DNA of 64,000 bases from Magnetococcales bacterium. Its GTDB lineage: Bacteria; Pseudomonadota; Magnetococcia; Magnetococcales; Magnetaquicoccaceae. The notes beneath the pieces were generated by a model. That model had not been told where the DNA came from. It searched no databases and saw only the letters and a program-made list of their open reading frames with translations. Made by a program: the position numbers and the translations under genes. Positions 2,938 to 36,927 of the stretch are shown in pieces (the first letter of the stretch is position 1; every line of letters begins with the position of its first letter). The stretch is from positions 4,457-68,456 of the forward strand of contig JADGAR010000018.1 of the NCBI GenBank assembly GCA_015231915.1, given 5' to 3'.

Positions 2938-2976
2938 TTCTACAAGGGGATGCCACGAACCGAAGAGGAAGTCCAA

Positions 2977-3588
2977 ATGTCACATACCGCCGCCATCGAT
3001 GCCGTCTGGGAGATGTTCCGGGAGACCAATCGCATGTCTCAGGAAGCGTTCCGCATGTCCCAGGAAACGGACAGAAAGCTCCAGGAAACCGATCGTCTGA
3101 TTCAGGAGGTCTCCAGACAGATGCGGGAGACGGACAGACAGATGCGGGAGACGGACAGAAAGCTGGATCGGCTCGGTGACCGTTTGGGAGAGTTCGTCGA
3201 GGGGTTGGTGGCCCCGGCCTGCGAGAGTTTGTTTGCGCAAAGAGGGATTCCGGTCCACAAGGTGAGCCGTCGGGTCAAGGCCAGGCTGCCGGGTGGCCGC
3301 CTCATGGAGATCGATCTGCTCGTGGTCAACACGGACGCCGTCTCTTTGGTGGAGGTCAAGAGCAAGCTGTCGGTGGAGGATGTGCGCGAACATTTGGATC
3401 GTTTGGGGGTGTTCAAGGAGTTTTTCCCGGAGTATGCCGACAAGCGCGTCTGTGGCGCGGTGGCAGGCATGGTGATCGAGGAAAACGTCTGCCGTTTTGC
3501 CATCCATCAGGGATTGTTCGTCATCGAGCAGGCGGGGGACACCCTGCGCATGGCCAATGACGACGCCTTCGTGCCGCGCTTCTGGTAA
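2977..3588 (+). CDS. DUF3782-type coiled-coil + PD-(D/E)XK nuclease-fold protein
   Basis: Heptads QETDRKL/RETDRQM followed by GEFVE...EIDLLVVN...LVEVKSKL; RBS GAGGAA before ATG 2977 (ORF track starts 2950). Confidence 0.8.
   Translation: MSHTAAIDAVWEMFRETNRMSQEAFRMSQETDRKLQETDRLIQEVSRQMRETDRQMRETDRKLDRLGDRLGEFVEGLVAPACESLFAQRGIPVHKVSRRVKARLPGGRLMEIDLLVVNTDAVSLVEVKSKLSVEDVREHLDRLGVFKEFFPEYADKRVCGAVAGMVIEENVCRFAIHQGLFVIEQAGDTLRMANDDAFVPRFW
3114..3155 (+). repeat. Two perfect 21-bp tandem units encoding a heptad
   Basis: CAGACAGATGCGGGAGACGGA x2, flanked by degenerate copies. Confidence 0.9.
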
Positions 3589-3603
3589 CCCCTTTTTTTC
3601 CTG

Positions 3604-3642
3604 AAAAAAAGCTCCGGCTGCATGAGCCGGAGCTTTTTTTTT
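3604..3642. terminator. Bidirectional rho-independent terminator
   Basis: A7-GCTCCGGCT-gcatg-AGCCGGAGC-T9 between convergent genes. Confidence 0.9.
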
Positions 3643-3647
3643 CGGGT

Positions 3648-6600
3648 TCATCGGGTCAAGGTAACGGTTCCCGTGCTGAAGGCAATGGAGTTGATCATGC
3701 CGGGCAGGTAATAGTCGAAGCGGATCGAGGTCGGAATCGTCTTGCTGTTGGCGCTGAACTGATCCGTGACGCCGTTGGCCTGCGCGGTCGCCTTGAGCGC
3801 GTTGTGGCGATCCAGGGCATTGGATGGGGTCAGCCCCAGGGTGGAACCCAGGACATGCGGTGTCGGCCCCATGCCGCCCCCGCCGGTGAAGAAGGCCAGG
3901 GAGCCATCGGTCTTCAGGAGGGTCAGGGCACCATTGTAGCTGGACAAGAGCGTGCTCAGATTCATGCTGATGTTTGGCAGCATTTCCAGATGCAATACCT
4001 CCACCGTGGAGTTGGCCACGTCGATGCCAATGGTCTTGGCCGTATTGTCCACGGAAGGCTTCAACCGTATCCGCACATCGGTGGTGTAGTCCGTGGCAAA
4101 GGGGGCGAAGGTGTTGAAGACACTGTCGAACACGGCGGCCACCGAGGCCGGCAGGCGGTTGTACATTCCCTCGATCAGCCCGATGCGGGCCATGATGCGG
4201 ATGACCGTCGGGTCGTCAGCGGGCAGGATCTCCACGGTCAACCGCTTGACCACCTCGTTGACCGCATTGGTGAAGGCGCCGCCCGTGGTGAATTGCTGGC
4301 CCAGCTTGCCCAGGATCAGGGTCACGATATCGGAATTGGTCAGCACCTTGCTGGATGGGTTGGCGTTCATGGTGGAAAGGATGCTCTTGAAGAGGGTCTC
4401 GGCATTGCTCTTGATCGTGGCCGCATTCGGCACGTCTGCGGCGGAATCCAGGGAGAAGGGCCTGGCCACCACGGTGATGGTGAAGCTCTTGGAAAACGTA
4501 TTGCTGCCCGAGTCGGTCACCTGGATGGTGACGCTGTAACTGCCCGCCACCGGGGTGGCGCCGGTGCGGACGGTGAGATAAGCACCGCTGGCGTTGCTGC
4601 GCACCGCGAACAGACTGCTCGCGTCGGTGGTGATGGCATAGGTGAAGGTATCGGACGGATTGTTGATGTCCGGATCCGTGGGCGTGATGGTCGCGATCAC
4701 CGAACCCGGATCGGCATCTTCGTAGAAACTGGTTCCGCTCAGGGTGAGGTCGGTCGGGGCATCGCTGACCGCAGCCACGCTGAAGGTGATGGAAGTGGAT
4801 GCGGTCTTGGCGCCTCCCGACCCGGTGAACCCCATGTCGGAAACCGTCACCGAGACGGTCTCCGAGCCGTTGTAGTCCTGATCGCCCTGGTAGGTGAAAC
4901 TGCCGATGGCGGCGCTCAAGTTGGCCAGGGTCCCGGTGAAGATCACGGTGGAGAGGTTGTTGGCCGTGGTGAGCGAGACCGAACCATTGGTTACCGTGAC
5001 CTTGCCGTGCAGAGCGGTCAGGGTGGCCTGCATGGTGCCTGCGGCGGCATCCACATCGGCCACGCTCCAGCCGGTGATGGTGGCGGCTGTGTCCTCGGTC
5101 ACCGCAGCGGTCGGCGCGGCGGTGCCGGAAATGACCGGGGCGTCGTTGACCGCCGCCACGGTGAATGTCATGGTGCCGGTGGCGTTTTTCGGTACCACGG
5201 GACTCTCGTCGCCAACATAGCCCTGGTCGTTGATGGTGACCGTGACGGTCTCCGCGCCGTTGGCGTCCTGATTGCCCAGATAGGTGAGGGTCGCCAGGGC
5301 GGTGTTGACATTGGTCAGGGTCCCGGTGAAGACCATGCTGGAGGCGTTGTTGGCCCCGGAGGTGAAAGTCAGTCCCGTGGTGGAGGCCAGGGTCACCTTG
5401 CCGATGGTGGCCGTCAGGGTGATCTCCACAGGATTGGTGCCGGCATCCACATCCGCCACGCTGACGCCGGTGATGGTCATGCTGGTGTCCTCGGTGGCGC
5501 TCAGGCCGGTGGGAACGGTCACGGTCGGGGCGTCGTTGACCGCGACGATGGTGAAATTCAACGTGGAGTTGGCGCTCAAGGCGCCGCCCGAGCCGATGCT
5601 GCCCTGATCGGAAACCGTCAGGGTGACGGTTTCCGCGCCGTTGGCGTTGCTGTTGCTCAGATAGCTCAGGCCGGTCAGTGCGGTGTTCACATCGGTCACC
5701 GTTCCGGTGAAGACCATGCTCGAAGAGTTGTTGGCGCCCGAGGAGAAGCTCAGGCCAGTGGTGGTGCTCAGGGTCAATTTGCCCTTGGTGGCGGAGAGGG
5801 TGACCTGGATCGGGTTGCTGGCGATGGTGTTGGTCGGGACGGTCATGTCTACGTCGGCCACGCTCCAGCCGACGATGGTGGCCGCCACATCCTCGCTGAC
5901 CGAGGGGGTCGTGGGGGTGGTGATGGTCGGGGTGTCGTTGACCGCCGCGATGGTGAAGGTCACGGTGGCGGTGGCGGACTGGGCGCCGCCCGCGCCGGTG
6001 TTGCCCTGGTCGCTGATTGACAGGGTGATGGTCTCCGAGCCGTTGTAATTCGCACTGCCCTGATAGCTCATGCCGGTCAGGGCGGTGTTCAATTGCGTCT
6101 TGGTGCCGGTGAAGACCATGCTCGCCGAGCCGTTGGCCCCGGAGGTGATCGACACCCCGGAGCCGCCACCCAGGGTCATGGTCCCGTTGGTCACCGACAG
6201 GGAGGCCTGCATGGTCCCGCCGCTGTCGTCCTCGTCCGCCACGCTGAAGGAGACCGCAAGCGCGGTGTCTTCGGTGGCCAGGGCGGTCAGCGAGGCGGCG
6301 GAGGGGGCGGTGATGACCGGCGCGTCGTTGACATTGGTGACCGAGATGCTCACCGCCTGACTGGCGGTCAGGCTGCCCGATCCGTTGTCCGTGGCCACCA
6401 TCGTGACCTCGTAGACGTTGTCGGTGTTGGCGTCCGTGGGCACCTCGTAATTGGGCGCGGTCTTGAAGGTCACGACGCCGCCGGCGGTGATGTCGAACTT
6501 GGATTCGTCCGCGCCCGTGCCGGCGAAGGACCAGGTGATGGCATCGCTTTCCGGATCCGTGGCGGTGGCCGCATAGGCGGTGCCGGTGCCGTTTTCGGCA

Positions 6601-9600
6601 AAGGAGGCGGTGGTCGCGGAGGTGATGGTGGGTGCGTCGTTGGCGCCGTTGATGGTGACGGTCAGCACCCCGATGTCCGTCAGGGCGCCGTCGGAGACGG
6701 TATAATTGAAACTGTCGGTGGTGGATTGACCCGACTTGAGGGCTTGCACCACGGCGTTGGTATCGTCCACCACATAGGTGAAGACGCCCGTGGCGGGGGT
6801 GAGGGTCAGCGTGCCGTAGGTGCCTGTGGAGACATAATCGGCCCCCGACGCGGTGGCGGCGGTTCCGCTTCCTTCGACGTTGCCCGTGCGCAGTGAGGTG
6901 ACCGACAGGGCGTTGCTTTCGACATCGGTGTCGTTGGTCAGGACATTGCCGGTGGCGTTGGCACCGGCGGTGCCATTGTTGGTGCCGCCTTTCTCCGTTG
7001 CGGATGCGGTGTCGTTCACCGCCACCGGAGCGTCGTTGGTCCCGTTGATGGTGATGGTCAACAGCGCCGTATCGGTGAGTGAACCGTCCGAAGCAGTGTA
7101 GTTGTAGTATTCGGTCAGGGATTGACCCGACTGCAGGGCCTGTACCGTGACATTGCTCTCATCGACGGTATAGGTGTAGGCCCCGGTGCTGGCGATGGTC
7201 AGGGAACCATAGGTGCCTGTCAAGGCCGCGCCCACCGTGCCCGCCGTGCCGCTCCCCTCGGTATTGCCGGTGCGGATCGCGGCAACGGTCAGGGTGGTGC
7301 CGGTATCGGCATCGGTATCGCTGCTGGTGAGGACGTTGCCGGTAGCCTGGGTGCCTGCCGTGCCGTTGAGGGTTCCGCCGGCCTCGGTCGCGGTGCCGGT
7401 GTCGTTGGCGGCCACCGGGTTTTCGTTGGCGCCGTTGATGGTGATGGTCAACACCCCGATGTCGGAAAGGGAACCGTCGGACGCCGTATAATTGAAACTT
7501 TCCGTGATGCTTTGTCCCACAGCCAGGGCATTCACCGTGGCATTGGTGTTGTCGATAACGTAAGTATAAGAACCATCGGTGGCCATGGTGAGGGAACCAT
7601 AGGTGCCCACCAGGGTCGCGCCTGGGGTCGCCGCGGTGCCCAGCCCCTCGGAGGCGCCGAGCCGGAAGGCGGATACGGTCAGGGAGGCATGACTCGTGTC
7701 CACGTCGGTGTCGTTGTCGAGCACGTTGCCCGTGGCATTGGTCCCAGGCGTGGCATTGTTCACGCCGCCCGCCTCGGTGGCGCTGCCGGTGTCGTTCACC
7801 GCCACCGGGGCGTCGTTGGCGCCGTTGATGGTGACGGCCAGGACCGCCATGTCGGTCAGGGTGCCGTCCGTGACGGTGTAATTGAACGATTCGCTGAGGG
7901 TCTGTCCCGGGGCGAGGGCCTGCACTGTGGCATTGCTTTCGTCGATCACATAGGTATAGGTGCCGCCTGCGGCCACGGTCAAGGCACCGTAGGTCCCGGT
8001 CAGGGCGGCCCCGACCGTCCCTGCAGTGCCGCTCCCCTCGACGCCGCCGGTACGGATGGCGCTCACTTGCAGCGTGGTCCCGTCGTCGGGATCGGTATCA
8101 TTGGTGAGAAGATTGCCGGTGGCGTTGCTGCCCGCCGTGCCATTGGCGGTGCCGCTGGCTTCCGTGGCGCTCCCGGTATCGTCCGAGGCCACCGGGGTGT
8201 CGTTGGCGCCATTGATGGTGATGGTCAAAAGGCCGATGTCGGTCAGGGCGCCGTCGGTAACCGTATAATTGAAGGTATCCGTGATGCTTTGCGCCGAATT
8301 CAGGGCCTGTACCGTGGGATTGGTGTCATCCACGGTATAGGAATAACTGCCATCTTCTTGCATGGTGAGGGAACCATAGGTACCGATCAGGGGCGAGGCG
8401 AGGGTGCCGGCTGAGCCGGATCCTTCGGTGCTGCCCAGCCGGATGGCGGTCACCGTGAGGGTGTCGCCCTCGACATCGGTGTCGTTGGTCAGGACATTGC
8501 CGCTGGCCGCGCTGCCCGCCGTGGCGTTGTTCGAGCCGCCTGCCTCTGTGGCGCTGCCGGTATCGTTCACAGCCACCGGGGCGTCGTTGACCGGGGTCAC
8601 CGTGACGATCTTGGTGCCGGTCAGGGCCGGGGCAATGCCGTCACTCACCGAGGTGGCAATGGAAAAGCTCAGGTCGTAGTCCTTGGCCGGGGTGAAGGTC
8701 AGCGCGGCCAGCAACGCATTGATGTCCGCCTGGGGTCCGCTGGCGCTCCACACCCCGTCCGCGAAGCTGGAGGTGGTGTTGCCGGCAGAGGCGACGGCGA
8801 GCGTACCGGCCAAAGGATCCGACAAACTCAGGGTGACGGTGAGGACCGCGTTGGCATCGTTGTCGTTCACCTCGATGGCTTTCAACTTGAACGCCTTGGC
8901 ATCCTCGGTGAACGCCTCGGCGGCGGAAAGGTTGGTGGCGGTCGGCGCATCGTTGACCGGGGTGACGGTCACCGGTTTGGAGCCGCTCAAGGTGGTCGCT
9001 CCGTCGTTCACCGAGGTGGTGATGGTGAAGTTTTTGTCGTAGTTGGCCGCCGGGGTGAACTTGACCGCTGCCAGCAGGAAGTTGATATCGTCCAGGGAGC
9101 CGCTGGCGCGCCACGTCCCGGCGCTGAAAGAAGAGGAGATGCCGGCGGGGGAACTGTCGGCAGAGAGGGTGCCCGCGCTGGCGTCGGAGAGGGTCAACGT
9201 CGCGGTGAGGGTTCCGCCCGCATCCGGGTCGCTCACCACAATGGGCACCAGCTTGAACGCAGCCGCATCCTCGGCGAACGCCTCGTTCGCCGCGAGATTG
9301 GTCGCCGTGGGCGGCTCGTTGACATCCGTGAGATTGATGGTGACGGTGGCGGTGCCGGTCGTGCCCTTGGGATCCTTCACCGTGACGCTCAGGGCAAAGC
9401 TCTTGTTGACCTCGTAATTCATCTGGGCGACATCGCTCACCGTGATGGTTCCGCTGGCGGCATCGATGGCGAACGCCGTGGATCCGGTGCCGCTCAGGCT
9501 GAAGGAGAGCGCGCCCTTGTCCGCAGGATCCGGGTCGGTTGCGGAGAGCGTCCCCACGATGGTGCCGTTGGGGCTGTTCTCCTTCAGCGTGAAGGTCTGC

Positions 9601-12092
9601 GCGTTGACCGTCGGGGGACGGTTGGATTGAAGGATCGTCGAGGTCGTCGTCGAGGTCGCGGTCGCCGGTTTCGAGGAGACGGCCTCCGGCAATCCACCTG
9701 GGGTGGTGGAGGGAATGGAGGTGGTCACGGTCGGAATGGTCGTGGTTGGCGACACCGGCGGTTTGTCGGTTGGTGGCTTGCCCGTATCGGGCACTGTCGA
9801 CTTGTCATCCTTTTTGTTGGTGTCGTCTCCGGTCGGCTTGGTATCCGTCGTCGTCTTGTCGTCCGTTGGCGGCTTCGTCTCGGTGGCGGTTTTTTTCGTC
9901 GTCTCTTGCACTTGCTCCTGCTTGACCTTGCTGGCCGCCTTGTTGGCCTCCTCGACGTTCAGGCCCAGCTTCGTGGCCTCCTGCTTCTGGACCGTCTTGA
10001 CATCCTCCGCCTTCTTTTCGATCGCCTTTTCCAGGGGGGTGCCGGATTTCACCGCCTCGACCAGCAGGGTGGTGAACTGCTTCAACGCCGTTTCGCTGCT
10101 CTTGACCGCCTCCGACTGGTGGTGATCCCCGGCCTTGCTGGTATCGATTTTGGAAAGATCGATGGTCGGTTGTAACTTGATCTTTTCTTTTTCCTGCTGA
10201 ATGGTCTGGAAAATCGCCTGTTTTTCCGTGGGCACGACCGCCTGGATCTGCTTGTTGGTCTCTGCCTGGATGATCTGCTGCTGCTGTTGCGTCTCTGCCT
10301 TGATCGCCTTGAATTGGGCAAGGGCCTCCGGGGGCAGGATATTTCTCATCTGTGTGGCGGCTTCACGCTCCGCGTTGTTTGTCTGCTGCGCCTTCTGGTT
10401 CAGGATCTCTTGCGCTTGTGTGGCCTTGTCCGCAGGCACCGCCGCAGCGATCTGTTCCGCAGTCTTTTTTGTCAGGGCAGCAGCATCTGCCGCCTGTTTC
10501 AGGAGAATCTCCTTGGCCTTTTGGAAATCCTTCTCGTTCGGCAGGGCATCCTGCAACGCCTTGAGCGTCTCCTGGGTGAGTTCGCCCGGTTTTGCATTCT
10601 TTTCCGCCAAAATGGAGGTGATCTTCTCTTTTTTCTCCTGGCCCAGATTATCCTGCAGGCTCTTTTCGGTTTCGTTGGCCAACTGGAGCGTCTTCTTCTC
10701 CTTCTCGGCCTCGATGAGGTGCAGTTTTTCCGCCGTTTCGGGGCCGAGCGTTTTTTCCAGTTTTTCGGCAGCTTCGGTGGCAGCAGTTTCTTTTTTCTGT
10801 TGTTTCTGCTCCTCGATCTCCAGGGCGGCCTCCACCTTCTTTTCGTCGCCCAGGGTCTTCAAAAGCTTCTCTTCGGCTTTCCTTTGTGCCTGTTCCTCTT
10901 TTTTGTCGCGTTCTGCTTCGGCGGCCTTGAGTTTTTTGTAGGCATCCTCGCCAAGCTCCTTCTTGAGCTTCTCTTCCACCTTGTCGAGCTTCTCGTTTTG
11001 ATCGAGCTTCTTGTCCACCGCCTTGGAGAGGTCTTCTTCGAGCTTTTTTTCCGCCTTGTCAAATACTTCCTTCATTGCCTCCGGGTTCTTGGCAAGCATT
11101 TTTTCCGCTGCGGCGACATCCTTGGCCGCCCCCTTGTCCACCAGATCCTGGGCGGCCTGTTTGATCAATTGTTGCTGGGTCTCCGGGGTGAGTTTGCGCA
11201 CTGCGGTTGCGGTATGGGAAGTCTTCAGCTCCTCCCGCGTCGCCTTGCGCACCTCGGTCTTGTCGCCGGGGGTGCCTTGCAGGATTTCGTTCTGCTTGAC
11301 GATTTGCGGGTCCTTGGAGGTGTCCGCCGCGAAGGCCTCGCGGAAGAGGGACCAGCCCGGCGAGAAATAGACCTCACCCAGAGAGGCGCTCTTGCCGCTG
11401 GCCAGGCGTTCTTCCATCCAGACCAGCACCTCCTTTTTCAGGGTGATCACATCGATTTTGCCCCCATTGCCCAGGCGCGCGAACCCCTCGGTGCCGCGCA
11501 CCCCCAGGGTGGCCGAAGGGGTCGTCACCTTGAAGGGCCGGTTCTGAAGCTGTGCCAGGCGACCGGAGGTGAATTTGATCATGCCTTTCGTCATGTCGAG
11601 CGCGCCATTGCCGCTCTGATCTTTCATGGAATACTGGTATTCCTGGACCAGAAATTCGCTTTCCGGGCCAAGGGCGATGACTGCCTTGTCTTTCATTTTC
11701 ATGACGATCCGGCCTTCCGTGCCGGTGACGATCCGGTCGCCCTTGAACAAAGGATCGTTCTCGCTCAAGGTACGCTTGACCTTGTCGGTTTCGGCGAAGA
11801 CCAGTCCCTTGAACTGCACCACCGTGCCCACCTCCTCGCGCTTGGGGCCGGTATCCGCTGCGGCTGCGGCAGCGGCAGGGGTTTGGGCTTCGGCGGTTTT
11901 CTGTTCGCCCTCTGCCTGTTCCTCCCTGGCGGCGCTCTTGGCATCTGGACGGGCGACCTTGGCCCGTTCCAGGACGATGGCTCTGGTCTTGTCCGAGGAG
12001 TCCGGCCCCAGCAGGAAATAACCGCCCGCGAGTGCCACGCATGTCAGCACCAGGATCGCGATCAGCCATTTATTGCGCAGCAGATTGCCCAT
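3648..12092 (-). CDS. Giant membrane-anchored FecR-domain, cadherin/Ig-repeat (VCBS-like) surface protein, 2814 aa
   Basis: N-terminal hydrophobic helix; FecR motifs (GDRIVTG...FKVTTPSATLGVRGT); K/E/Q/A helical region; P/T linker; cadherin motifs (ENSPNGTIVGTLSATDPD, APNYE); many NDAP-initiated Ig-like repeats. Confidence 0.9.
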   Translation of the reverse strand: MGNLLRNKWLIAILVLTCVALAGGYFLLGPDSSDKTRAIVLERAKVARPDAKSAAREEQAEGEQKTAEAQTPAAAAAAADTGPKREEVGTVVQFKGLVFAETDKVKRTLSENDPLFKGDRIVTGTEGRIVMKMKDKAVIALGPESEFLVQEYQYSMKDQSGNGALDMTKGMIKFTSGRLAQLQNRPFKVTTPSATLGVRGTEGFARLGNGGKIDVITLKKEVLVWMEERLASGKSASLGEVYFSPGWSLFREAFAADTSKDPQIVKQNEILQGTPGDKTEVRKATREELKTSHTATAVRKLTPETQQQLIKQAAQDLVDKGAAKDVAAAEKMLAKNPEAMKEVFDKAEKKLEEDLSKAVDKKLDQNEKLDKVEEKLKKELGEDAYKKLKAAEAERDKKEEQAQRKAEEKLLKTLGDEKKVEAALEIEEQKQQKKETAATEAAEKLEKTLGPETAEKLHLIEAEKEKKTLQLANETEKSLQDNLGQEKKEKITSILAEKNAKPGELTQETLKALQDALPNEKDFQKAKEILLKQAADAAALTKKTAEQIAAAVPADKATQAQEILNQKAQQTNNAEREAATQMRNILPPEALAQFKAIKAETQQQQQIIQAETNKQIQAVVPTEKQAIFQTIQQEKEKIKLQPTIDLSKIDTSKAGDHHQSEAVKSSETALKQFTTLLVEAVKSGTPLEKAIEKKAEDVKTVQKQEATKLGLNVEEANKAASKVKQEQVQETTKKTATETKPPTDDKTTTDTKPTGDDTNKKDDKSTVPDTGKPPTDKPPVSPTTTIPTVTTSIPSTTPGGLPEAVSSKPATATSTTTSTILQSNRPPTVNAQTFTLKENSPNGTIVGTLSATDPDPADKGALSFSLSGTGSTAFAIDAASGTITVSDVAQMNYEVNKSFALSVTVKDPKGTTGTATVTINLTDVNEPPTATNLAANEAFAEDAAAFKLVPIVVSDPDAGGTLTATLTLSDASAGTLSADSSPAGISSSFSAGTWRASGSLDDINFLLAAVKFTPAANYDKNFTITTSVNDGATTLSGSKPVTVTPVNDAPTATNLSAAEAFTEDAKAFKLKAIEVNDNDANAVLTVTLSLSDPLAGTLAVASAGNTTSSFADGVWSASGPQADINALLAALTFTPAKDYDLSFSIATSVSDGIAPALTGTKIVTVTPVNDAPVAVNDTGSATEAGGSNNATAGSAASGNVLTNDTDVEGDTLTVTAIRLGSTEGSGSAGTLASPLIGTYGSLTMQEDGSYSYTVDDTNPTVQALNSAQSITDTFNYTVTDGALTDIGLLTITINGANDTPVASDDTGSATEASGTANGTAGSNATGNLLTNDTDPDDGTTLQVSAIRTGGVEGSGTAGTVGAALTGTYGALTVAAGGTYTYVIDESNATVQALAPGQTLSESFNYTVTDGTLTDMAVLAVTINGANDAPVAVNDTGSATEAGGVNNATPGTNATGNVLDNDTDVDTSHASLTVSAFRLGASEGLGTAATPGATLVGTYGSLTMATDGSYTYVIDNTNATVNALAVGQSITESFNYTASDGSLSDIGVLTITINGANENPVAANDTGTATEAGGTLNGTAGTQATGNVLTSSDTDADTGTTLTVAAIRTGNTEGSGTAGTVGAALTGTYGSLTIASTGAYTYTVDESNVTVQALQSGQSLTEYYNYTASDGSLTDTALLTITINGTNDAPVAVNDTASATEKGGTNNGTAGANATGNVLTNDTDVESNALSVTSLRTGNVEGSGTAATASGADYVSTGTYGTLTLTPATGVFTYVVDDTNAVVQALKSGQSTTDSFNYTVSDGALTDIGVLTVTINGANDAPTITSATTASFAENGTGTAYAATATDPESDAITWSFAGTGADESKFDITAGGVVTFKTAPNYEVPTDANTDNVYEVTMVATDNGSGSLTASQAVSISVTNVNDAPVITAPSAASLTALATEDTALAVSFSVADEDDSGGTMQASLSVTNGTMTLGGGSGVSITSGANGSASMVFTGTKTQLNTALTGMSYQGSANYNGSETITLSISDQGNTGAGGAQSATATVTFTIAAVNDTPTITTPTTPSVSEDVAATIVGWSVADVDMTVPTNTIASNPIQVTLSATKGKLTLSTTTGLSFSSGANNSSSMVFTGTVTDVNTALTGLSYLSNSNANGAETVTLTVSDQGSIGSGGALSANSTLNFTIVAVNDAPTVTVPTGLSATEDTSMTITGVSVADVDAGTNPVEITLTATIGKVTLASTTGLTFTSGANNASSMVFTGTLTNVNTALATLTYLGNQDANGAETVTVTINDQGYVGDESPVVPKNATGTMTFTVAAVNDAPVISGTAAPTAAVTEDTAATITGWSVADVDAAAGTMQATLTALHGKVTVTNGSVSLTTANNLSTVIFTGTLANLSAAIGSFTYQGDQDYNGSETVSVTVSDMGFTGSGGAKTASTSITFSVAAVSDAPTDLTLSGTSFYEDADPGSVIATITPTDPDINNPSDTFTYAITTDASSLFAVRSNASGAYLTVRTGATPVAGSYSVTIQVTDSGSNTFSKSFTITVVARPFSLDSAADVPNAATIKSNAETLFKSILSTMNANPSSKVLTNSDIVTLILGKLGQQFTTGGAFTNAVNEVVKRLTVEILPADDPTVIRIMARIGLIEGMYNRLPASVAAVFDSVFNTFAPFATDYTTDVRIRLKPSVDNTAKTIGIDVANSTVEVLHLEMLPNISMNLSTLLSSYNGALTLLKTDGSLAFFTGGGGMGPTPHVLGSTLGLTPSNALDRHNALKATAQANGVTDQFSANSKTIPTSIRFDYYLPGMINSIAFSTGTVTLTR
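6640..8590 (-). repeat. Five tandem ~130-aa (~390-bp) VCBS/Ig-like repeats within the giant CDS
   Basis: Units begin ND(A/T)PVA or NENPVA at about 8590, 8204, 7817, 7427 and 7037 and share GNVLxNDTD...GTYGxLT...Y(T/S)Y...FNYTxxDGxLTDxxxLTxTINGAN. Confidence 0.9.
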
Positions 12093-12182
12093 GGGTGAGA
12101 ATCCCTAGTTCAAAAGATGGACGTGGCGCTCCCCCTTGTCGGAGCGTTCCAGATTGTCAGTATACGCGCTTTTTGCAAAAGT

Positions 12183-12197
12183 CCTATTGATAATAGG
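12183..12197. promoter_or_regulatory. Inverted repeat, candidate operator upstream of the giant gene
   Basis: CCTATT-gat-AATAGG; a minus-strand TATACT -10-like hexamer lies at 12159-12164. Confidence 0.4.
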
Positions 12198-12220
12198 TAA
12201 AAAACCGTAACATCACCACC

Positions 12221-12250
12221 AAAAAAAATGCCGTCCGGCAACGGACGGCA
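12221..12250 (-). terminator. Rho-independent terminator after the secretin gene
   Basis: Minus strand TGCCGTCC-gttgcc-GGACGGCA-T8. Confidence 0.85.
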
Positions 12251-12275
12251 AGGAATTGCGGGATTCGACGCGGAT

Positions 12276-14915
12276 TCAATCCGTGACAAGCCGTGCCTGC
12301 AGTTCGGTGGCATCGTTCAGGCGGGCCAGGGCATCGGTGGCTTCCCTCTGCCCGGGGAAGGGTCCGGAGCGCAGGCGGGTGACCGTCTGCCCGCCTTGCA
12401 TGGTCTGCTCCGGCAGGATCGGCAGGCCGATGGCGGCCACCTGTTTGCGGATCTCTTCCACGAAGGCAGTGTCACGATAGGAGCCAAGGTCGAGATAGAA
12501 TCTCTGTGGCGGGCGCATGGCCGCTTCCGGTCCTGGCGGCGGGGCAGGGGCATGCGCCGGCGGTTCGGGCGTTGGCGGAGGGATGCGGGTCTGGCGGGAG
12601 ATATTGGCCAAACCCTCCGCACTGGTGAAATCGAGATAGGAGCCGACCGACATCGCATTGACACCTGCAGGAGGCGGAGCCGCCGGTGCGGAGGCAGCGG
12701 GTTGCGGTGCCACGGGAGCCGGAACCGGGGTTTGCGCCGCAGAGGGCGAAGCCGGGGCTGCGGGTGGGGCGGACGTGAGCGGAGTCGGGGCCAAAGCCGA
12801 AGCCGGGGCCGAAGTCGGAGTTGGCGTGGGGGCCGCAGCCGGATTGGCGCCGGGGGTGGCAGCGGCCACCGGAGCGGGTTTGGCGGGTGCAGGGGTTTTC
12901 TTCTCCCCGTCCGTGGAGACGGTTTTGCCCTTGCCGGTCTTGTCCGCAGGCTTGGCCCCGCCGGTCACCTTGTCGGAGGGGGCGGCAGGGCTGGCTGCCA
13001 CCGGCGGCTTCGGCGTGGCCGGGGCGCTCTGCGCCGATTCCTTGGTGGGTTCCACGGGACGGTTCACCCTTTCCGTGCGCGGTTTGCCATGGGTCATCAC
13101 CACCGGACGCAGGAAGATCACCAGTTCGCTCTTTCTCACCTGTTGATCCTTGCTGCCGAACATGGATCCCAGGGGACCGGGCAGTTTGGAGAGAACCGGC
13201 AGGCCGTTGGTATCTTTCTCCACGGTATCCTGCATCAGACCACCCATGACGGCCACCTGACCGCTGTGGACCCGCATGAGGGTCTCCATCTCCTTGATTT
13301 CAATCTCAGGAATGAGGTTTTGAATGTCTGCCTGCAACCCTGTCTGCAGATTTCCACCTTTCAGGGCCGGGTTCGGGTCGGACTGATAGCTGGTGATGCG
13401 GGTGATGGTGGGACGCACGTTCATGCTGACGATCCCCTCGCTGGAAATCTGCGGGGTGACCGTGATGATCAACCCTTCCGGGACCGTGTGAATCTCGGTG
13501 TCGAAGACCGGCTGCGTGGCTGCCGTGGGGGGCGTCGTGGCGTTTTCCGGGGCGGTGGTGCTCGATTTCAGGGTGAAGAAGACCCGGTTCTTGACCACTT
13601 TCAGCACGGCTGGCTGATTGTTCAGGGCCATGATCTTGGGGCTGGAGAGGACCTTGGTGTTGCCGAAGGTCTCCAGCATCTTGACCGTGGCGAAGACCGG
13701 ACCCTTGGCCTTGTTGTCCGCGCTGAAACTCGCGGGGAGATCGGCGCCGCTGCCCAGGGCGAAGCTCAGCAGTCCGCCGGTCGCCGGGAGTTGGTTGACG
13801 GCATTGTTCACCGCTCCCTTGATGCGATTATTGAAAATCATCTCCCAGTTCACCCCTTCCTGGAAGCGATCCGACAGTTCCACTTCCACCACGGTGGATT
13901 CGATCAGCACCTGGCGATGGACATTTTCCAGGACGCTGTCCAGGTAATCCTGAATCCGTTCGTGCTGGGCAGCGGTGGCGATGATGCTGATGACGCCCGC
14001 TTCGACATTGACCGAAACCAGGCCCGGTCGGTTGCCTTGTTGGGTTTTCCCCTCCATGGTCTTGCCGCCAGAGGGAGCGCCCATTCCGGACGGGGCGCCG
14101 GCGGGGATCATGAGGGCATCCAATCCGCCGACCCCGCCGCCGGTGCCGACCGCGCCGACACCAGGAGTGGCGACATCCTGCAGGAGCGGAACATCACTCC
14201 CGGTGTCCGCGCCGAGAATGGCCTGGACATTCTGGATGAGGCTCTTCCAGAACTTGCTGTCGGAGGTGGTGGTCAGGACGGTGTTGGTTTGATTGGCATC
14301 CGGCTGGGCCGAGCTGACGAAGCTGGTCTTGTTGGCCTTCTGGGTGCTGAGGTTGGTGGAGATCTTGTTGGTGCTGACCATGTTCCGCTCGATGCCGAGA
14401 TAGTCCACCTGATAGATCTTCAGGAACGGCAGATCGGGGGTGACCACGATGGTCTTGTCCTGGATCTCGTAGCGGATGCCGACCTGTTTGGCCACGCGGT
14501 CGAGGATTTTGGTCAAAGGCTGATCGATGGCGCTCAGGGTCACCCGTCCCTGGATGCCGGGGTAAACGTCAATATTTTTGTTCGCGTCCCGTGCGAGGGC
14601 GAACAGCAGGTCCCGAACCGGCATTTCCGTGACGGTAATGGTATAAACTTCCTCATGGGGAGGGGCGGTTCCTTCCGCGCTCGGGGTGGCGATAACGCCT
14701 CCCTCCTTGGTCGGCGCTGGGGTCGCGGCGATCTCCAGGGGCGGATTGGTGGGTTGCAGGAAGTGCTCCCTGGACTGCTTGATCCTGCTTTGTTCGCAGG
14801 ACGCCAAAAACAGACATGCAAGCAGCATCAAGCCTGCGTGTCGCAAGGTGGCGGTGCGTGACAAGGCGCGCTGGTACGCGATTTTTACGGTTGGCATGAG
14901 TTCTTGATGTTTCAT
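12276..14915 (-). CDS. mshL: MSHA-type (MshL-like) lipoprotein secretin with C-terminal Pro/Ala linker and SPOR domain
   Basis: Lipobox LASC (Cys codon 14796-14798); STN-like YTITVTEMPVRDLLFALARD; secretin core QVLIESTVVEV...VLSSPKIMALNNQPA...GGLMQD...ELVIFLRP; terminal FYLDLGSY...RLRSGPF. Start uncertain (14945/14915/14897). Confidence 0.85.
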   Translation of the reverse strand: MKHQELMPTVKIAYQRALSRTATLRHAGLMLLACLFLASCEQSRIKQSREHFLQPTNPPLEIAATPAPTKEGGVIATPSAEGTAPPHEEVYTITVTEMPVRDLLFALARDANKNIDVYPGIQGRVTLSAIDQPLTKILDRVAKQVGIRYEIQDKTIVVTPDLPFLKIYQVDYLGIERNMVSTNKISTNLSTQKANKTSFVSSAQPDANQTNTVLTTTSDSKFWKSLIQNVQAILGADTGSDVPLLQDVATPGVGAVGTGGGVGGLDALMIPAGAPSGMGAPSGGKTMEGKTQQGNRPGLVSVNVEAGVISIIATAAQHERIQDYLDSVLENVHRQVLIESTVVEVELSDRFQEGVNWEMIFNNRIKGAVNNAVNQLPATGGLLSFALGSGADLPASFSADNKAKGPVFATVKMLETFGNTKVLSSPKIMALNNQPAVLKVVKNRVFFTLKSSTTAPENATTPPTAATQPVFDTEIHTVPEGLIITVTPQISSEGIVSMNVRPTITRITSYQSDPNPALKGGNLQTGLQADIQNLIPEIEIKEMETLMRVHSGQVAVMGGLMQDTVEKDTNGLPVLSKLPGPLGSMFGSKDQQVRKSELVIFLRPVVMTHGKPRTERVNRPVEPTKESAQSAPATPKPPVAASPAAPSDKVTGGAKPADKTGKGKTVSTDGEKKTPAPAKPAPVAAATPGANPAAAPTPTPTSAPASALAPTPLTSAPPAAPASPSAAQTPVPAPVAPQPAASAPAAPPPAGVNAMSVGSYLDFTSAEGLANISRQTRIPPPTPEPPAHAPAPPPGPEAAMRPPQRFYLDLGSYRDTAFVEEIRKQVAAIGLPILPEQTMQGGQTVTRLRSGPFPGQREATDALARLNDATELQARLVTD

Positions 14916-14976
14916 GGATGCCGCTCTTTTCCAGAAAGGATACAATGGAGTGCCTGTGCAAGGTCAAGCAGAGGTA

Positions 14977-35298: not shown

Positions 35299-36927
35299 TC
35301 AGCGGGCGGCAGGAGTGGCCTTGGCCATCATGCCGATCTCCTTCTTGACGGACTCCAGCGCGGCATCGGCATCCTTCTGGGTGGCAAAGGGTCCCATCAC
35401 CACATGGGAAAACTCTTTGCCATTGACGATGGCCATCTTGATGAAGGCCTTGATCCCGCGCTCGGTCAGGCGGCGGCGCATGGCATTGGCATTGTCCGGA
35501 TTGCTGAACGAAGCCGCCGTGGTCACGAAACCGGTGAAACGGGTCTTCTGCGGCGGCTCGGCTTGCGCTGCGGCGGGCGCTTTCGGCTGCGCCTTGGCAA
35601 CGACTGCCGGCTTCTTGTCGGTTGCATCGCTCTTGGCGTTCTTGTCTGCCACCGGGGCCGCCTTCGCCTGAACCTGGGGCTTGACTTCGACCGGCGCCTT
35701 GCCCTCGGCGGGCTTGGCCTTGACTTCCGGCTTCGGCGCGGCAGCCGTCCGGGTCGCATCGCCGGGCAGGGCATTCTGTTTGGCGCTCGGCACGCTCAGC
35801 GCCTTCGCCTCCACGCCACCCCGCTCCTTGATGATCGTCACCGCCTTGCCGGCCAGGTCCGAAGAGGCGAAAGGCCCGGTCAACAGGTGATGCATCGGCT
35901 TGTTCTGGTAGGTGCTCTTGGCCAGACGCACCGGAATGCCCGCATCGTTCAACTGCTTTTGCAATTTTTCCGCGCCAGCGAGATTGGAGAAGGAGCCGGC
36001 AGTCACCAGGAATTGTCCGTCCGTCTGCTCATGCGGGAACTCCGTCTTGCCGTGGCCCGCATCGCCGGGCTTGGCCTCCAGGATGGGCGCGGCCTTGGAT
36101 TGCGGCCTGGCTTCGCTCTTGGGAGCGGTTTTAAGCTCCGGCCTGGTCTCGGGCGTCTTGCTCTCCGCCTTCGCGGGTGCCGCTTTCGGCTCCACCCGGG
36201 TCAGGGAGAGCGCCTTGGCTTCCGGTCTGGGTGGGGGGACCATCTTCCTGGCCTCTGTCGGGGCCTTCGGCGTCTCGGTCGAGGCGGGCTGAGTCGCCAC
36301 GCCCTTGTTGAGATCGATTTTGGTCATGGACAAATAACGCTTCGCGGGCTGGGCCGCTTCATGCGCGGTGGCGGACGCCACCACGGGCTTGGCCGCCGTC
36401 TCGTCCGACACCAGGGGCATCTCCTCGACCGGTTCGCTCATGGCATCGTCCATGCTGTCATCCGCAGGCTCTTCCATGTTGAGATCCAGGGTGTCATCCA
36501 GGAGGTCGTTCTTGCCCTTGTTGGCCAACTGGGGTCCCTCGACCTCGATCTTGACCTCCTCCTTCTCCGTGAGGGCGGCCATGGCCTCTGCGGTCTTCTC
36601 GTCGCCCTTTCCGCCCATGAACTCGTCCATGCTGTCGAATTTGGCCGGCTTGTCGTTCTTGGCCTCGGTGGTCTCGCTGGCCTCGTTGGCGGGCAACTCC
36701 GGTTTCATTTCCAGCGCGGCCTTGGATGCCGGCGGATGCCAGACCATGGCGGTGACGATCCCGCCCACGACTGCGGCAACCAGGGCCTCGGTCAGGTGCC
36801 AGCCGATCCGCTTGCGTCGGCTGTTTTTCGCCAGGCGATTATTCTCATTTGGGGAAATGAAAATGTCCGCAGTACCAGTGGGGGGGTCTTGACGGGATGT
36901 GTCCAAGTCGTGTACAGCGCCGGTCAC
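35299..36927 (-). CDS. Membrane-anchored protein with two SPOR domains
   Basis: One TM (ALVAAVVGGIVTAMVW); K/P/A/E low-complexity linkers; SPOR-like FLVTAGSFSN...LLTGPF and FVTTAASFSN...VVMGPF. Confidence 0.85.
   Translation of the reverse strand: MTGAVHDLDTSRQDPPTGTADIFISPNENNRLAKNSRRKRIGWHLTEALVAAVVGGIVTAMVWHPPASKAALEMKPELPANEASETTEAKNDKPAKFDSMDEFMGGKGDEKTAEAMAALTEKEEVKIEVEGPQLANKGKNDLLDDTLDLNMEEPADDSMDDAMSEPVEEMPLVSDETAAKPVVASATAHEAAQPAKRYLSMTKIDLNKGVATQPASTETPKAPTEARKMVPPPRPEAKALSLTRVEPKAAPAKAESKTPETRPELKTAPKSEARPQSKAAPILEAKPGDAGHGKTEFPHEQTDGQFLVTAGSFSNLAGAEKLQKQLNDAGIPVRLAKSTYQNKPMHHLLTGPFASSDLAGKAVTIIKERGGVEAKALSVPSAKQNALPGDATRTAAAPKPEVKAKPAEGKAPVEVKPQVQAKAAPVADKNAKSDATDKKPAVVAKAQPKAPAAAQAEPPQKTRFTGFVTTAASFSNPDNANAMRRRLTERGIKAFIKMAIVNGKEFSHVVMGPFATQKDADAALESVKKEIGMMAKATPAAR

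Follow-up and report, generated by a model that had tools for sequence, protein, structure and literature searches.

A Magnetococcales MshL-type secretin with a C-terminal SPOR domain and a conserved giant neighbour

Secretins form gated channels of 12-15 subunits in the outer membrane, serving pili, type II and type III secretion systems and filamentous phage, each together with an inner-membrane motor. A member of this group is encoded at 12276..14915, on the minus strand, of a 64,000-nucleotide stretch from a Magnetococcales bacterium (assembly GCA_015231915.1, contig JADGAR010000018.1, positions 4,457 to 68,456 of the forward strand), which as a whole is called the window below. Its product is a complete, lipidated MshL-family secretin that continues past the barrel into a long disordered tether and a C-terminal SPOR domain, an architecture that is Magnetococcales-wide, lineage-specific and conserved, and it forms a conserved pair with the next gene downstream, which encodes a giant FecR/RIN-cadherin protein. 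The reading favoured here, to which a probability of about 0.5 is given, is that this MshL paralogue, standing outside a pilus operon, would act as a self-contained, wall-anchored pore with the giant protein as its likeliest client.

Secretin core, tether and SPOR domain

In the list of open reading frames (ORFs) of the window, the gene appears as a minus-strand frame at 12276-14945, encoding 889 residues from a TTG at 14945; the likely start is the ATG at 14915, which gives a secretin of 879 residues identical to the database gene call P0003. Pfam positions are given below in the 889-residue numbering, while those of the AlphaFold2 (AF2) model follow the 879-residue numbering. An antisense frame of 877 codons on the plus strand over the secretin was set aside as a high-GC artefact, with an Arg/Gly-rich translation and no family matches. 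The Pfam Secretin model (PF00263) matches residues 424-617 (E 1.3e-33, 116.4 bits against a cut-off of 27.5) and Secretin_N_2 matches residues 176-250 above its cut-off, while STN stays sub-threshold at 20.9 bits, reaching the cut-off (28.7 bits) in the orthologue P0038. The NCBIfam MshL equivalog (TIGR02519) is matched by the narrow margin of 254.9 bits against 250.2, and the same model gave 258.9 bits in a six-frame search. The signal peptide (14796..14915, minus strand, as are all features of the gene) ends in the lipobox LFLASC at Cys40, which predicts an outer-membrane lipoprotein; this Cys is kept in at least 90% of 44 aligned homologues, in which more than 80 columns of the core are invariant.

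A full-length AF2 model built on the same 44 homologues begins with a signal helix (residues 20-38) and a short disordered linker past the lipid-bearing Cys, which are followed by an N0/STN-like periplasmic domain at residues ~90-170 (14406..14648; predicted local distance difference test score, pLDDT, ~85) and a second N-domain at 178-236, where the Secretin_N_2 match falls at residues ~166-240 (14196..14420). After a Gly-rich gap, an N3-like domain (299-347) and the secretin beta-barrel together occupy residues ~299-607 (13095..14021). The best whole-chain fold match is BfpB (PDB 9U5S; Foldseek E 1e-18 over 649 columns), with further matches to PilQ, InvG, GspD and pIV, and the core also has sequence matches to the XcpQ and PilQ structures. 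Beyond the barrel lies a tether rich in Pro, Ala and Thr, disordered over residues 614-800 (12516..13076; 187 residues, pLDDT below 50), which contains the motif SYLDFT at 12624..12641. An original prediction for this locus had described a complete lipidated MshL-like secretin with a Pro/Ala/Thr linker of about 190 residues leading into a SPOR-like domain, and the family models, lipobox, fold matches, disorder and composition are all in agreement with it.

The SPOR domain itself (12282..12509) is matched by Pfam SPOR (PF05036) at residues 813-882 (E 3.6e-9, 37.3 bits against a gathering cut-off of 21), and the NCBIfam model of the FtsN C-terminal region matches the tail as well. In the AF2 model, residues 806-878 form a confident beta-alpha-beta-beta-alpha-beta domain. 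A model of this domain alone, built from 18 orthologous tails (pLDDT ~87), finds the SPOR domains of DedD, RlpA, CwlC and FtsN as its top PDB matches, superposing on that of RlpA (6I05) with a root-mean-square deviation of 1.4 Å and a template modelling score of 0.85, and a profile of the 18 tails matches SPOR chains of FtsN, RlpA, CwlC and DamX in the PDB. A single-sequence phmmer search of the tail against the PDB returned nothing relevant, and a word-indexed homologue search with the SPOR region alone returned just three close relatives, other lineages lying beyond its reach. The C-terminal SPOR fold is certain, as the solved SPOR structures bear out for what had been predicted as a SPOR-like domain.

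The ligand specificity, unlike the fold, is not certain to be that of the FtsN and RlpA domains. Characterised SPOR domains bind glycan denuded by amidases, which is enriched at septa, and in FtsN the residues Q251, S254, W283, R285 and I313 are needed for septal localisation, Q251 being the equivalent of RlpA Q270, which contacts the lactyl group of MurNAc (PMC6895207). When the secretin SPOR domains are aligned with FtsN by hidden Markov model (HMM) and with one another, the equivalents of S254 and R285 are invariant or nearly so, and that of W283 is Tyr in most orthologues and Val in the window secretin; the position of Q251 is taken up with the alternatives below. Within the genome, an HMM of the secretin SPOR finds its closest relative in a protein of 542 residues with two SPOR domains (window 35299-36927, minus strand; Pfam 89.7 bits). 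Capture of the domain from MshM was considered as an origin, and no sign of it was seen, as this HMM ranks the double-SPOR protein and other SPOR proteins first and retrieves no MshM SPORs.

The closest database proteins to the secretin are all from Magnetococcales, most of them annotated as Secretin plus SPOR, and a six-frame search found long orthologues in most of 56 Magnetococcales genomes. In a tree of 63 sequences (35 members of the tailed clade and 28 others), the tailed secretins form one clade with a Shimodaira-Hasegawa-like approximate likelihood-ratio (SH-aLRT) support of 100, nested within MshL representatives; its placement as sister to the canonical MshL on contig C66 of the same genome is weakly supported (SH-aLRT 84, with a long C66 branch). 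Where canonical MshL stops 30-45 residues past the barrel, the tailed clade extends for 100-320 residues. The SPOR domain is present in 21 of the 35 clade members, absent from the other 14, and found in none of the 28 sequences outside; its presence requires about 5-6 state changes on the tree and thus repeated loss, so that within the clade SPOR is, judged from the tree, dispensable. The motif [GS][GS]YL[DN]F[TS], by contrast, is present in 35/35 clade members including those that lack SPOR, and in 0/28 of the other MshL-type secretins. On these counts it is a true clade signature, and it may be regarded as a candidate docking peptide.

A wider survey, confined to the MshL family, took the best 150 representatives of 1.84 billion protein clusters, 133 of which lie outside the clade; among these 133 a SPOR tail was found in one only (P0233), itself a fragment of the tailed clade. 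Six MshL proteins of other lineages (P0134, P0164, P0176, P0202, P0234 and P0251) have C-terminal tails of 165-320 residues, which are tetratricopeptide repeat (TPR)-like by sequence, and appear to be MshL-MshN fusions.

Gene neighbourhood and the giant partner

The original prediction spoke of an orphan secretin with no msh or pil genes adjacent. The latter part holds over the whole 71-kb contig (C43), where Pfam and NCBIfam scans and tblastn found no pilus genes, with no MshM, MshN, MshE, MshG or pilin and no T2SSE ATPase, tblastn returning only MshL matches; the neighbours of the secretin on this contig are aat, rph, Fe-S and NarI-like genes, AsmA, the giant protein gene and ATP-binding cassette (ABC) exporters. 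The term orphan had to be given up, the secretin being one half of a conserved pair with the giant FecR/RIN-cadherin gene.

The giant gene (3648..12092, minus strand) is the next gene downstream of the secretin on the same strand and encodes 2814 residues, comprising a signal anchor, a FecR/RIN-like domain, a helical region rich in Lys and Glu, 13 or more cadherin/VCBS repeats and a conserved C-terminal domain of about 270 residues. The predicted transmembrane signal anchor (residues ~9-28, 12009..12068) is a conserved hydrophobic stretch after basic residues, and the FecR/RIN-like beta-sandwich (residues ~85-230, 11403..11840) is matched by Pfam FecR at 43 bits. A profile of 16 giant N-modules has a single significant PDB match, the RIN domain of MpIBP, an ice-binding adhesin of Marinomonas (5IX9, E 3.7e-4); RIN is a periplasmic beta-sandwich that has been proposed to plug a TolC-like pore and so retain the adhesin, and has served as template for the retention module of LapA (PMC5550230; bioRxiv 10.1101/198937). 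An NCBIfam scan of the giant gave VCBS, tandem-95 and adhesin C-terminal models only, and no RTX or type I secretion system (T1SS) signal was found in it by Pfam and NCBIfam scans.

The pairing was seen at several depths. The giant gene follows the secretin in three of four orthologue contigs looked up, the exception being Magnetofaba, and the partners measure 1091, 2794 and 3829 residues; FecR is on record for two of these three, the product of the third not being among those searched. By tblastn the giant N-module lies just downstream of the secretin in most loci across the order, and by search coordinates the two are adjacent in 27 of 33-35 resolvable genomes, in nine families, and not adjacent in 6-8, the six genomes in which a contig ends at the pair standing outside this count. 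Among the adjacent pairs are those of the SPOR-less G045 and G046 (family f15; one of them a single-contig genome), G045 being the complete genome from which the coordinates of the M. marinus orthologue were taken. The SPOR-less form of the pair is the one present in the culturable relatives Magnetococcus marinus MC-1 and M. massalia MO-1. The pair outlasts its flanking genes in nine families, and in genera g2 (nine genomes) and g15 (two genomes) the tailed secretin and the orthologous giant are both absent, with aat present.

A second, independent linkage comes from genus g9, in which the giant beside the tailed secretin is short (1091 residues in G009) or deleted. Three genomes of this genus carry an operon encoding an MshL-like secretin (604 residues), a TPR protein, an ExeA-like ATPase and a signal-anchor/FecR/cadherin protein of 1581 residues, which lie at 3315-5129, 5126-6358, 6403-8076 and 8104-12849 on the plus strand of L050 (G012:C222:5000-20000) and again in L051 and L052. 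No pilus genes are present in this operon, neither MshE nor MshG among them, and its last gene is paralogous to the window giant at either end, in the N-module as well as in the C-terminal domain (E 2e-12). The linkage of paralogous secretins to paralogous giants is the strongest argument for what would be a functional tie.

Several features around the giant may be recorded in their own right. At 1-2904, on the plus strand and transcribed towards the giant gene, lie two tandem ABC exporter genes (permease plus ATPase, MsbA/SmdAB-like). Their HlyB scores of 340 and 237 bits, where the cut-off stands at 725, fall so far short of T1SS level that they are probably unrelated to the secretin-giant pair, and no MFP or TolC was seen. 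The giant's stop codon is overlapped by the ATG of a 223-codon ORF (window 2980-3651, minus strand), a hint that the two might be translationally coupled, and a 212-codon ORF lies opposite this one at 2950-3588; neither has a convincing family match, and other genes follow the giant in L008 and L011, the loci of two relatives. In these two loci (L011 612-5894, L008 1-2967) the pair lies less than 10 kb from five tandem flagellin genes with flaG, or from cheB/cheR/cheY/cheX, which may be coincidence. Magnetococcales genomes also hold two to six further giant ORFs of ~1000-7800 residues with the same FecR/RIN-like N-module, one such example being the 2689-residue ORF at G000:C45:70337-70783. Past the RIN-like domain, at residues ~270-280, a stretch A-A-D-x-x-K-[ED]-P, which is a possible protease site, is conserved among the N-modules of the giants, and the genome has one match to LapG-like Peptidase_C93 (G000:C49:47513-47779, plus strand, 40 bits), which is unlinked to the pair.

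The other MshL-type secretins of the genome bear on how the tail is to be read. The canonical MshL on contig C66 and a copy on C64 each adjoin MshM, MshN, MshE and MshG homologues, so that the window secretin is a surplus paralogue; in beta- and gammaproteobacteria, homologues some 600 residues long sit in MshM-MshL-MshN-MshE-MshG operons as well. The C66 MshM, an ExeA/MshM-like ATPase, has SPOR at its end (24.8 bits), PG_binding_1 and SPOR (50 bits) occur together in the MshM-like protein of C64, and a fourth MshL-like secretin, on C86 (locus L046, 2-1855 and 1875-4049, minus strand), is followed by a protein with PEGA and SPOR domains. In other bacteria, the MshM of Thiogranum has SPOR at 25.6 bits and that of Accumulibacter falls just under the cut-off. 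All four MshL-type secretins of this genome are therefore accompanied by SPOR, three in an adjacent gene and one by fusion, and SPOR wall binding, as predicted from these domains, is the rule among them. Since the other three have their SPOR next door, the wall anchor of the window secretin can be taken as the version in cis, which makes the self-anchoring role that had been predicted for it plausible.

Proposed function and its alternatives

In the proposed mechanism, the lipidated N-terminus of the secretin would lie in the inner leaflet of the outer membrane and the core would, judging from its family, assemble into a multimeric barrel, every subunit of which would bear the tether of ~190 residues with SYLDFT and, in about 60% of lineages, the terminal SPOR domain. 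The SPOR domains would reach the peptidoglycan and tie the secretin ring to the wall, supplying in cis what the canonical MshL-type systems of the genome may receive in trans from an ExeA/MshM-like ATPase or a PEGA-SPOR protein. Inserted by Sec by way of the N-terminal signal anchor, the giant would keep its FecR/RIN-like beta-sandwich, homologous to the retention plug of LapA and MpIBP, in the periplasm. Its helical region and calcium-type cadherin repeats would be threaded through the secretin, or held by it, and displayed outside, with the SPOR anchors passing mechanical load to the wall. That a Sec-dependent giant adhesin is held by the secretin is backed by two independent genomic linkages and the RIN homology, and may be put at even odds or somewhat less. 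The fuller proposal, of an undescribed two-gene, Sec-dependent display system in which a cadherin fibre is anchored by a signal anchor and RIN-like head and passes through a SPOR-pinned secretin, is more tentative and would have to be placed clearly below even odds. A literature search on SPOR-bearing secretins, FecR adhesins and Magnetococcus secretins found no description of this protein or of the pair.

Magnetotactic cocci have been described with a calcium-dependent sheath glycoprotein of more than 350 kDa and with 24 non-flagellar fibrils that have small basal bodies, and in the same reports no gene is assigned to the sheath glycoprotein or the fibrils (PMC7175107, PMC5774414). For such a sheath or fibril structure, a ring of secretin with a giant fibre held in it would be a speculative candidate.

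A number of observations weigh against the proposal. The TolC pore that RIN plugs is much narrower than the channel of a secretin, and no ATPase or other energy source was found linked to the pair. Outside genus g9, the further giants with the same N-module never lie near a secretin, and the SPOR domain has been lost at least about five times with the giant kept, being retained within the window's own genus in two species only. A strong hairpin resembling an intrinsic terminator (12229..12250, minus strand; 9-bp stem with 7 GC pairs, followed by T8) separates the secretin from the giant gene, so that the two need not be co-transcribed, and aat, a housekeeping gene with no relation to the pair, likewise stays upstream of the secretin in 12 of 30 loci, so that part of the adjacency is inherited synteny. 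In G012 the secretin is intact, with motif and SPOR, and the giant has been cleanly deleted, a PstS-like gene lying directly downstream; in L039 (G011) no giant N-module is present in the ~1.2 kb downstream of the secretin. The genome, on its fragmented contigs, has at least nine loci with T2SSE-type ATPases against 6-7 secretin loci, and with more such ATPases than secretins a pilus partner in trans is possible.

The terminator, the aat synteny, the two loci without a neighbouring giant and the excess of ATPase loci would all be accommodated if the secretin served a type IV filament or a type II secretion system (T2SS)-like machine encoded elsewhere, its tail and SPOR replacing an MshM-type helper and its adjacency to the giant being inherited gene order. 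In line with this alternative, the protein truly belongs to MshL and has its conserved N0 domain in common with canonical MshL, yet every recognisable MSHA-like, type IVa pilus or T2SS cluster found on the fragmented contigs has a secretin of its own. The survival of the pair beyond its flanks in nine families, the joint absence of secretin and giant orthologue from g2 and g15, and the g9 operon in which a paralogous secretin is followed by a paralogous giant with no pilus genes likewise speak for a tie to the giant rather than to a distant machine, and service to a machine encoded elsewhere is judged unlikely.

The original prediction had gone further on the SPOR domain, proposing that it recognises denuded septal glycan and that the secretin would thereby target itself to the site of division and, as a result, to new poles. 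The domain is real, its equivalents of FtsN S254 and R285 are conserved, known SPOR domains do bind denuded glycan of this kind (PMC6895207), and the AMIN domains of PilQ serve the same kind of recruitment (PMC5285504). The position equivalent to FtsN Q251 and RlpA Q270 is, on the other hand, Asp or Glu in 18/18 aligned orthologues, which also weighs against the proposed wall anchoring, and the window secretin has Val in place of W283; 14/35 clade members lack SPOR altogether through about five losses, and the host organisms are cocci, in which a new pole has little meaning. Septal self-targeting would on this evidence be a doubtful reading, about as improbable as that of the distant machine. 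That the fusion might be an assembly or frameshift artefact, or the gene a decaying relic, was also considered; the nearest hints of this come from P0009, a relative that looks frameshifted, and from G007, where a stop lies in frame. Dozens of independent assemblies of many species share the architecture with intact frames, which rules out a frameshift or an artefact of assembly and makes the fusion genuine, and with more than 80 invariant core columns and a conserved motif and lipobox, decay is very improbable indeed.

If the proposal of a wall-anchored pore with a giant client is right, it would add to the secretins a new class of client, in which a machine-free, self-anchored channel is tied to a giant membrane-anchored adhesin, and it would provide a second, T1SS-independent route for the display of giant adhesins. 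Candidate genes would be at hand for surface or flagellar-sheath structures of magnetotactic cocci. The genome also serves as a natural experiment in the attachment of secretins to peptidoglycan, in which SPOR is used three times in trans and once in cis, with losses in related lineages, and the invariant SYLDFT in an otherwise freely evolving tether provides a handle for finding a binding partner.

Comparison with known systems

By family, the closest known system is MshL, the secretin of the MSHA type IV pilus (Vibrio cholerae msh locus), with which the window secretin shares its lipoprotein nature and its layout of N0, Secretin_N_2, N3 and barrel, scoring above the equivalog cut-off and nesting within MshL. 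Unlike MshL, it stands outside an msh operon, has a C-terminal extension of ~270 residues with SYLDFT and SPOR, and has a giant partner. BfpB, the secretin of the type IVb bundle-forming pilus (PDB 9U5S) and the best whole-chain fold match, is lipidated as well, but it is only ~13% identical to the window secretin, belongs to a full pilus operon and has neither a C-terminal tether nor SPOR.

On the side of the giant protein, the closest parallels are LapA with LapE, and MpIBP, where a giant repeat adhesin has an N-terminal RIN domain homologous to that of the window giant, and a periplasmic head holds the fibre in an outer-membrane channel (PMC5550230; bioRxiv 10.1101/198937). LapA and MpIBP are T1SS substrates that pass through a TolC-like pore, with a C-terminal RTX signal and without a membrane anchor, whereas the window giant starts with a signal anchor of Sec type, lacks an RTX or T1SS signal and an adjacent set of ABC, MFP and TolC genes, and has a secretin as its neighbouring channel.

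Wall binding is supplied to secretins in several other ways. GspA/ExeA with GspB, and the SPOR-tailed MshM proteins, do so in trans from an inner-membrane AAA+ protein, as opposed to the window secretin, whose SPOR is fused and which has no ExeA-like neighbour. The AMIN domains of PilQ and the LysM domain of TsaP also bring about multivalent binding of a secretin ring to (denuded) peptidoglycan (PMC5285504), though they have an AMIN or LysM fold, are N-terminal or on a separate protein and belong to a pilus, in contrast to a C-terminal SPOR with no pilus. SPOR and secretin in one polypeptide have been described in Legionella pneumophila LspD, a member of the GspD family whose N-terminal SPOR lies just before N0, in a complete T2SS that lacks GspA and GspB (PMC6617341, PMC9239104). 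The original prediction had allowed that its architecture might already be characterised, and with LspD a secretin bearing its own SPOR does have a precedent; the C-terminal fusion on an MshL-type secretin was not found described, the window SPOR lying at the far C-terminus past a long disordered tether, in a secretin of MshL type with no linked machine. With LspD and the AMIN domains of PilQ as precedents, the fusion is best read as the cis version of a SPOR anchor that is otherwise provided by a neighbouring gene.

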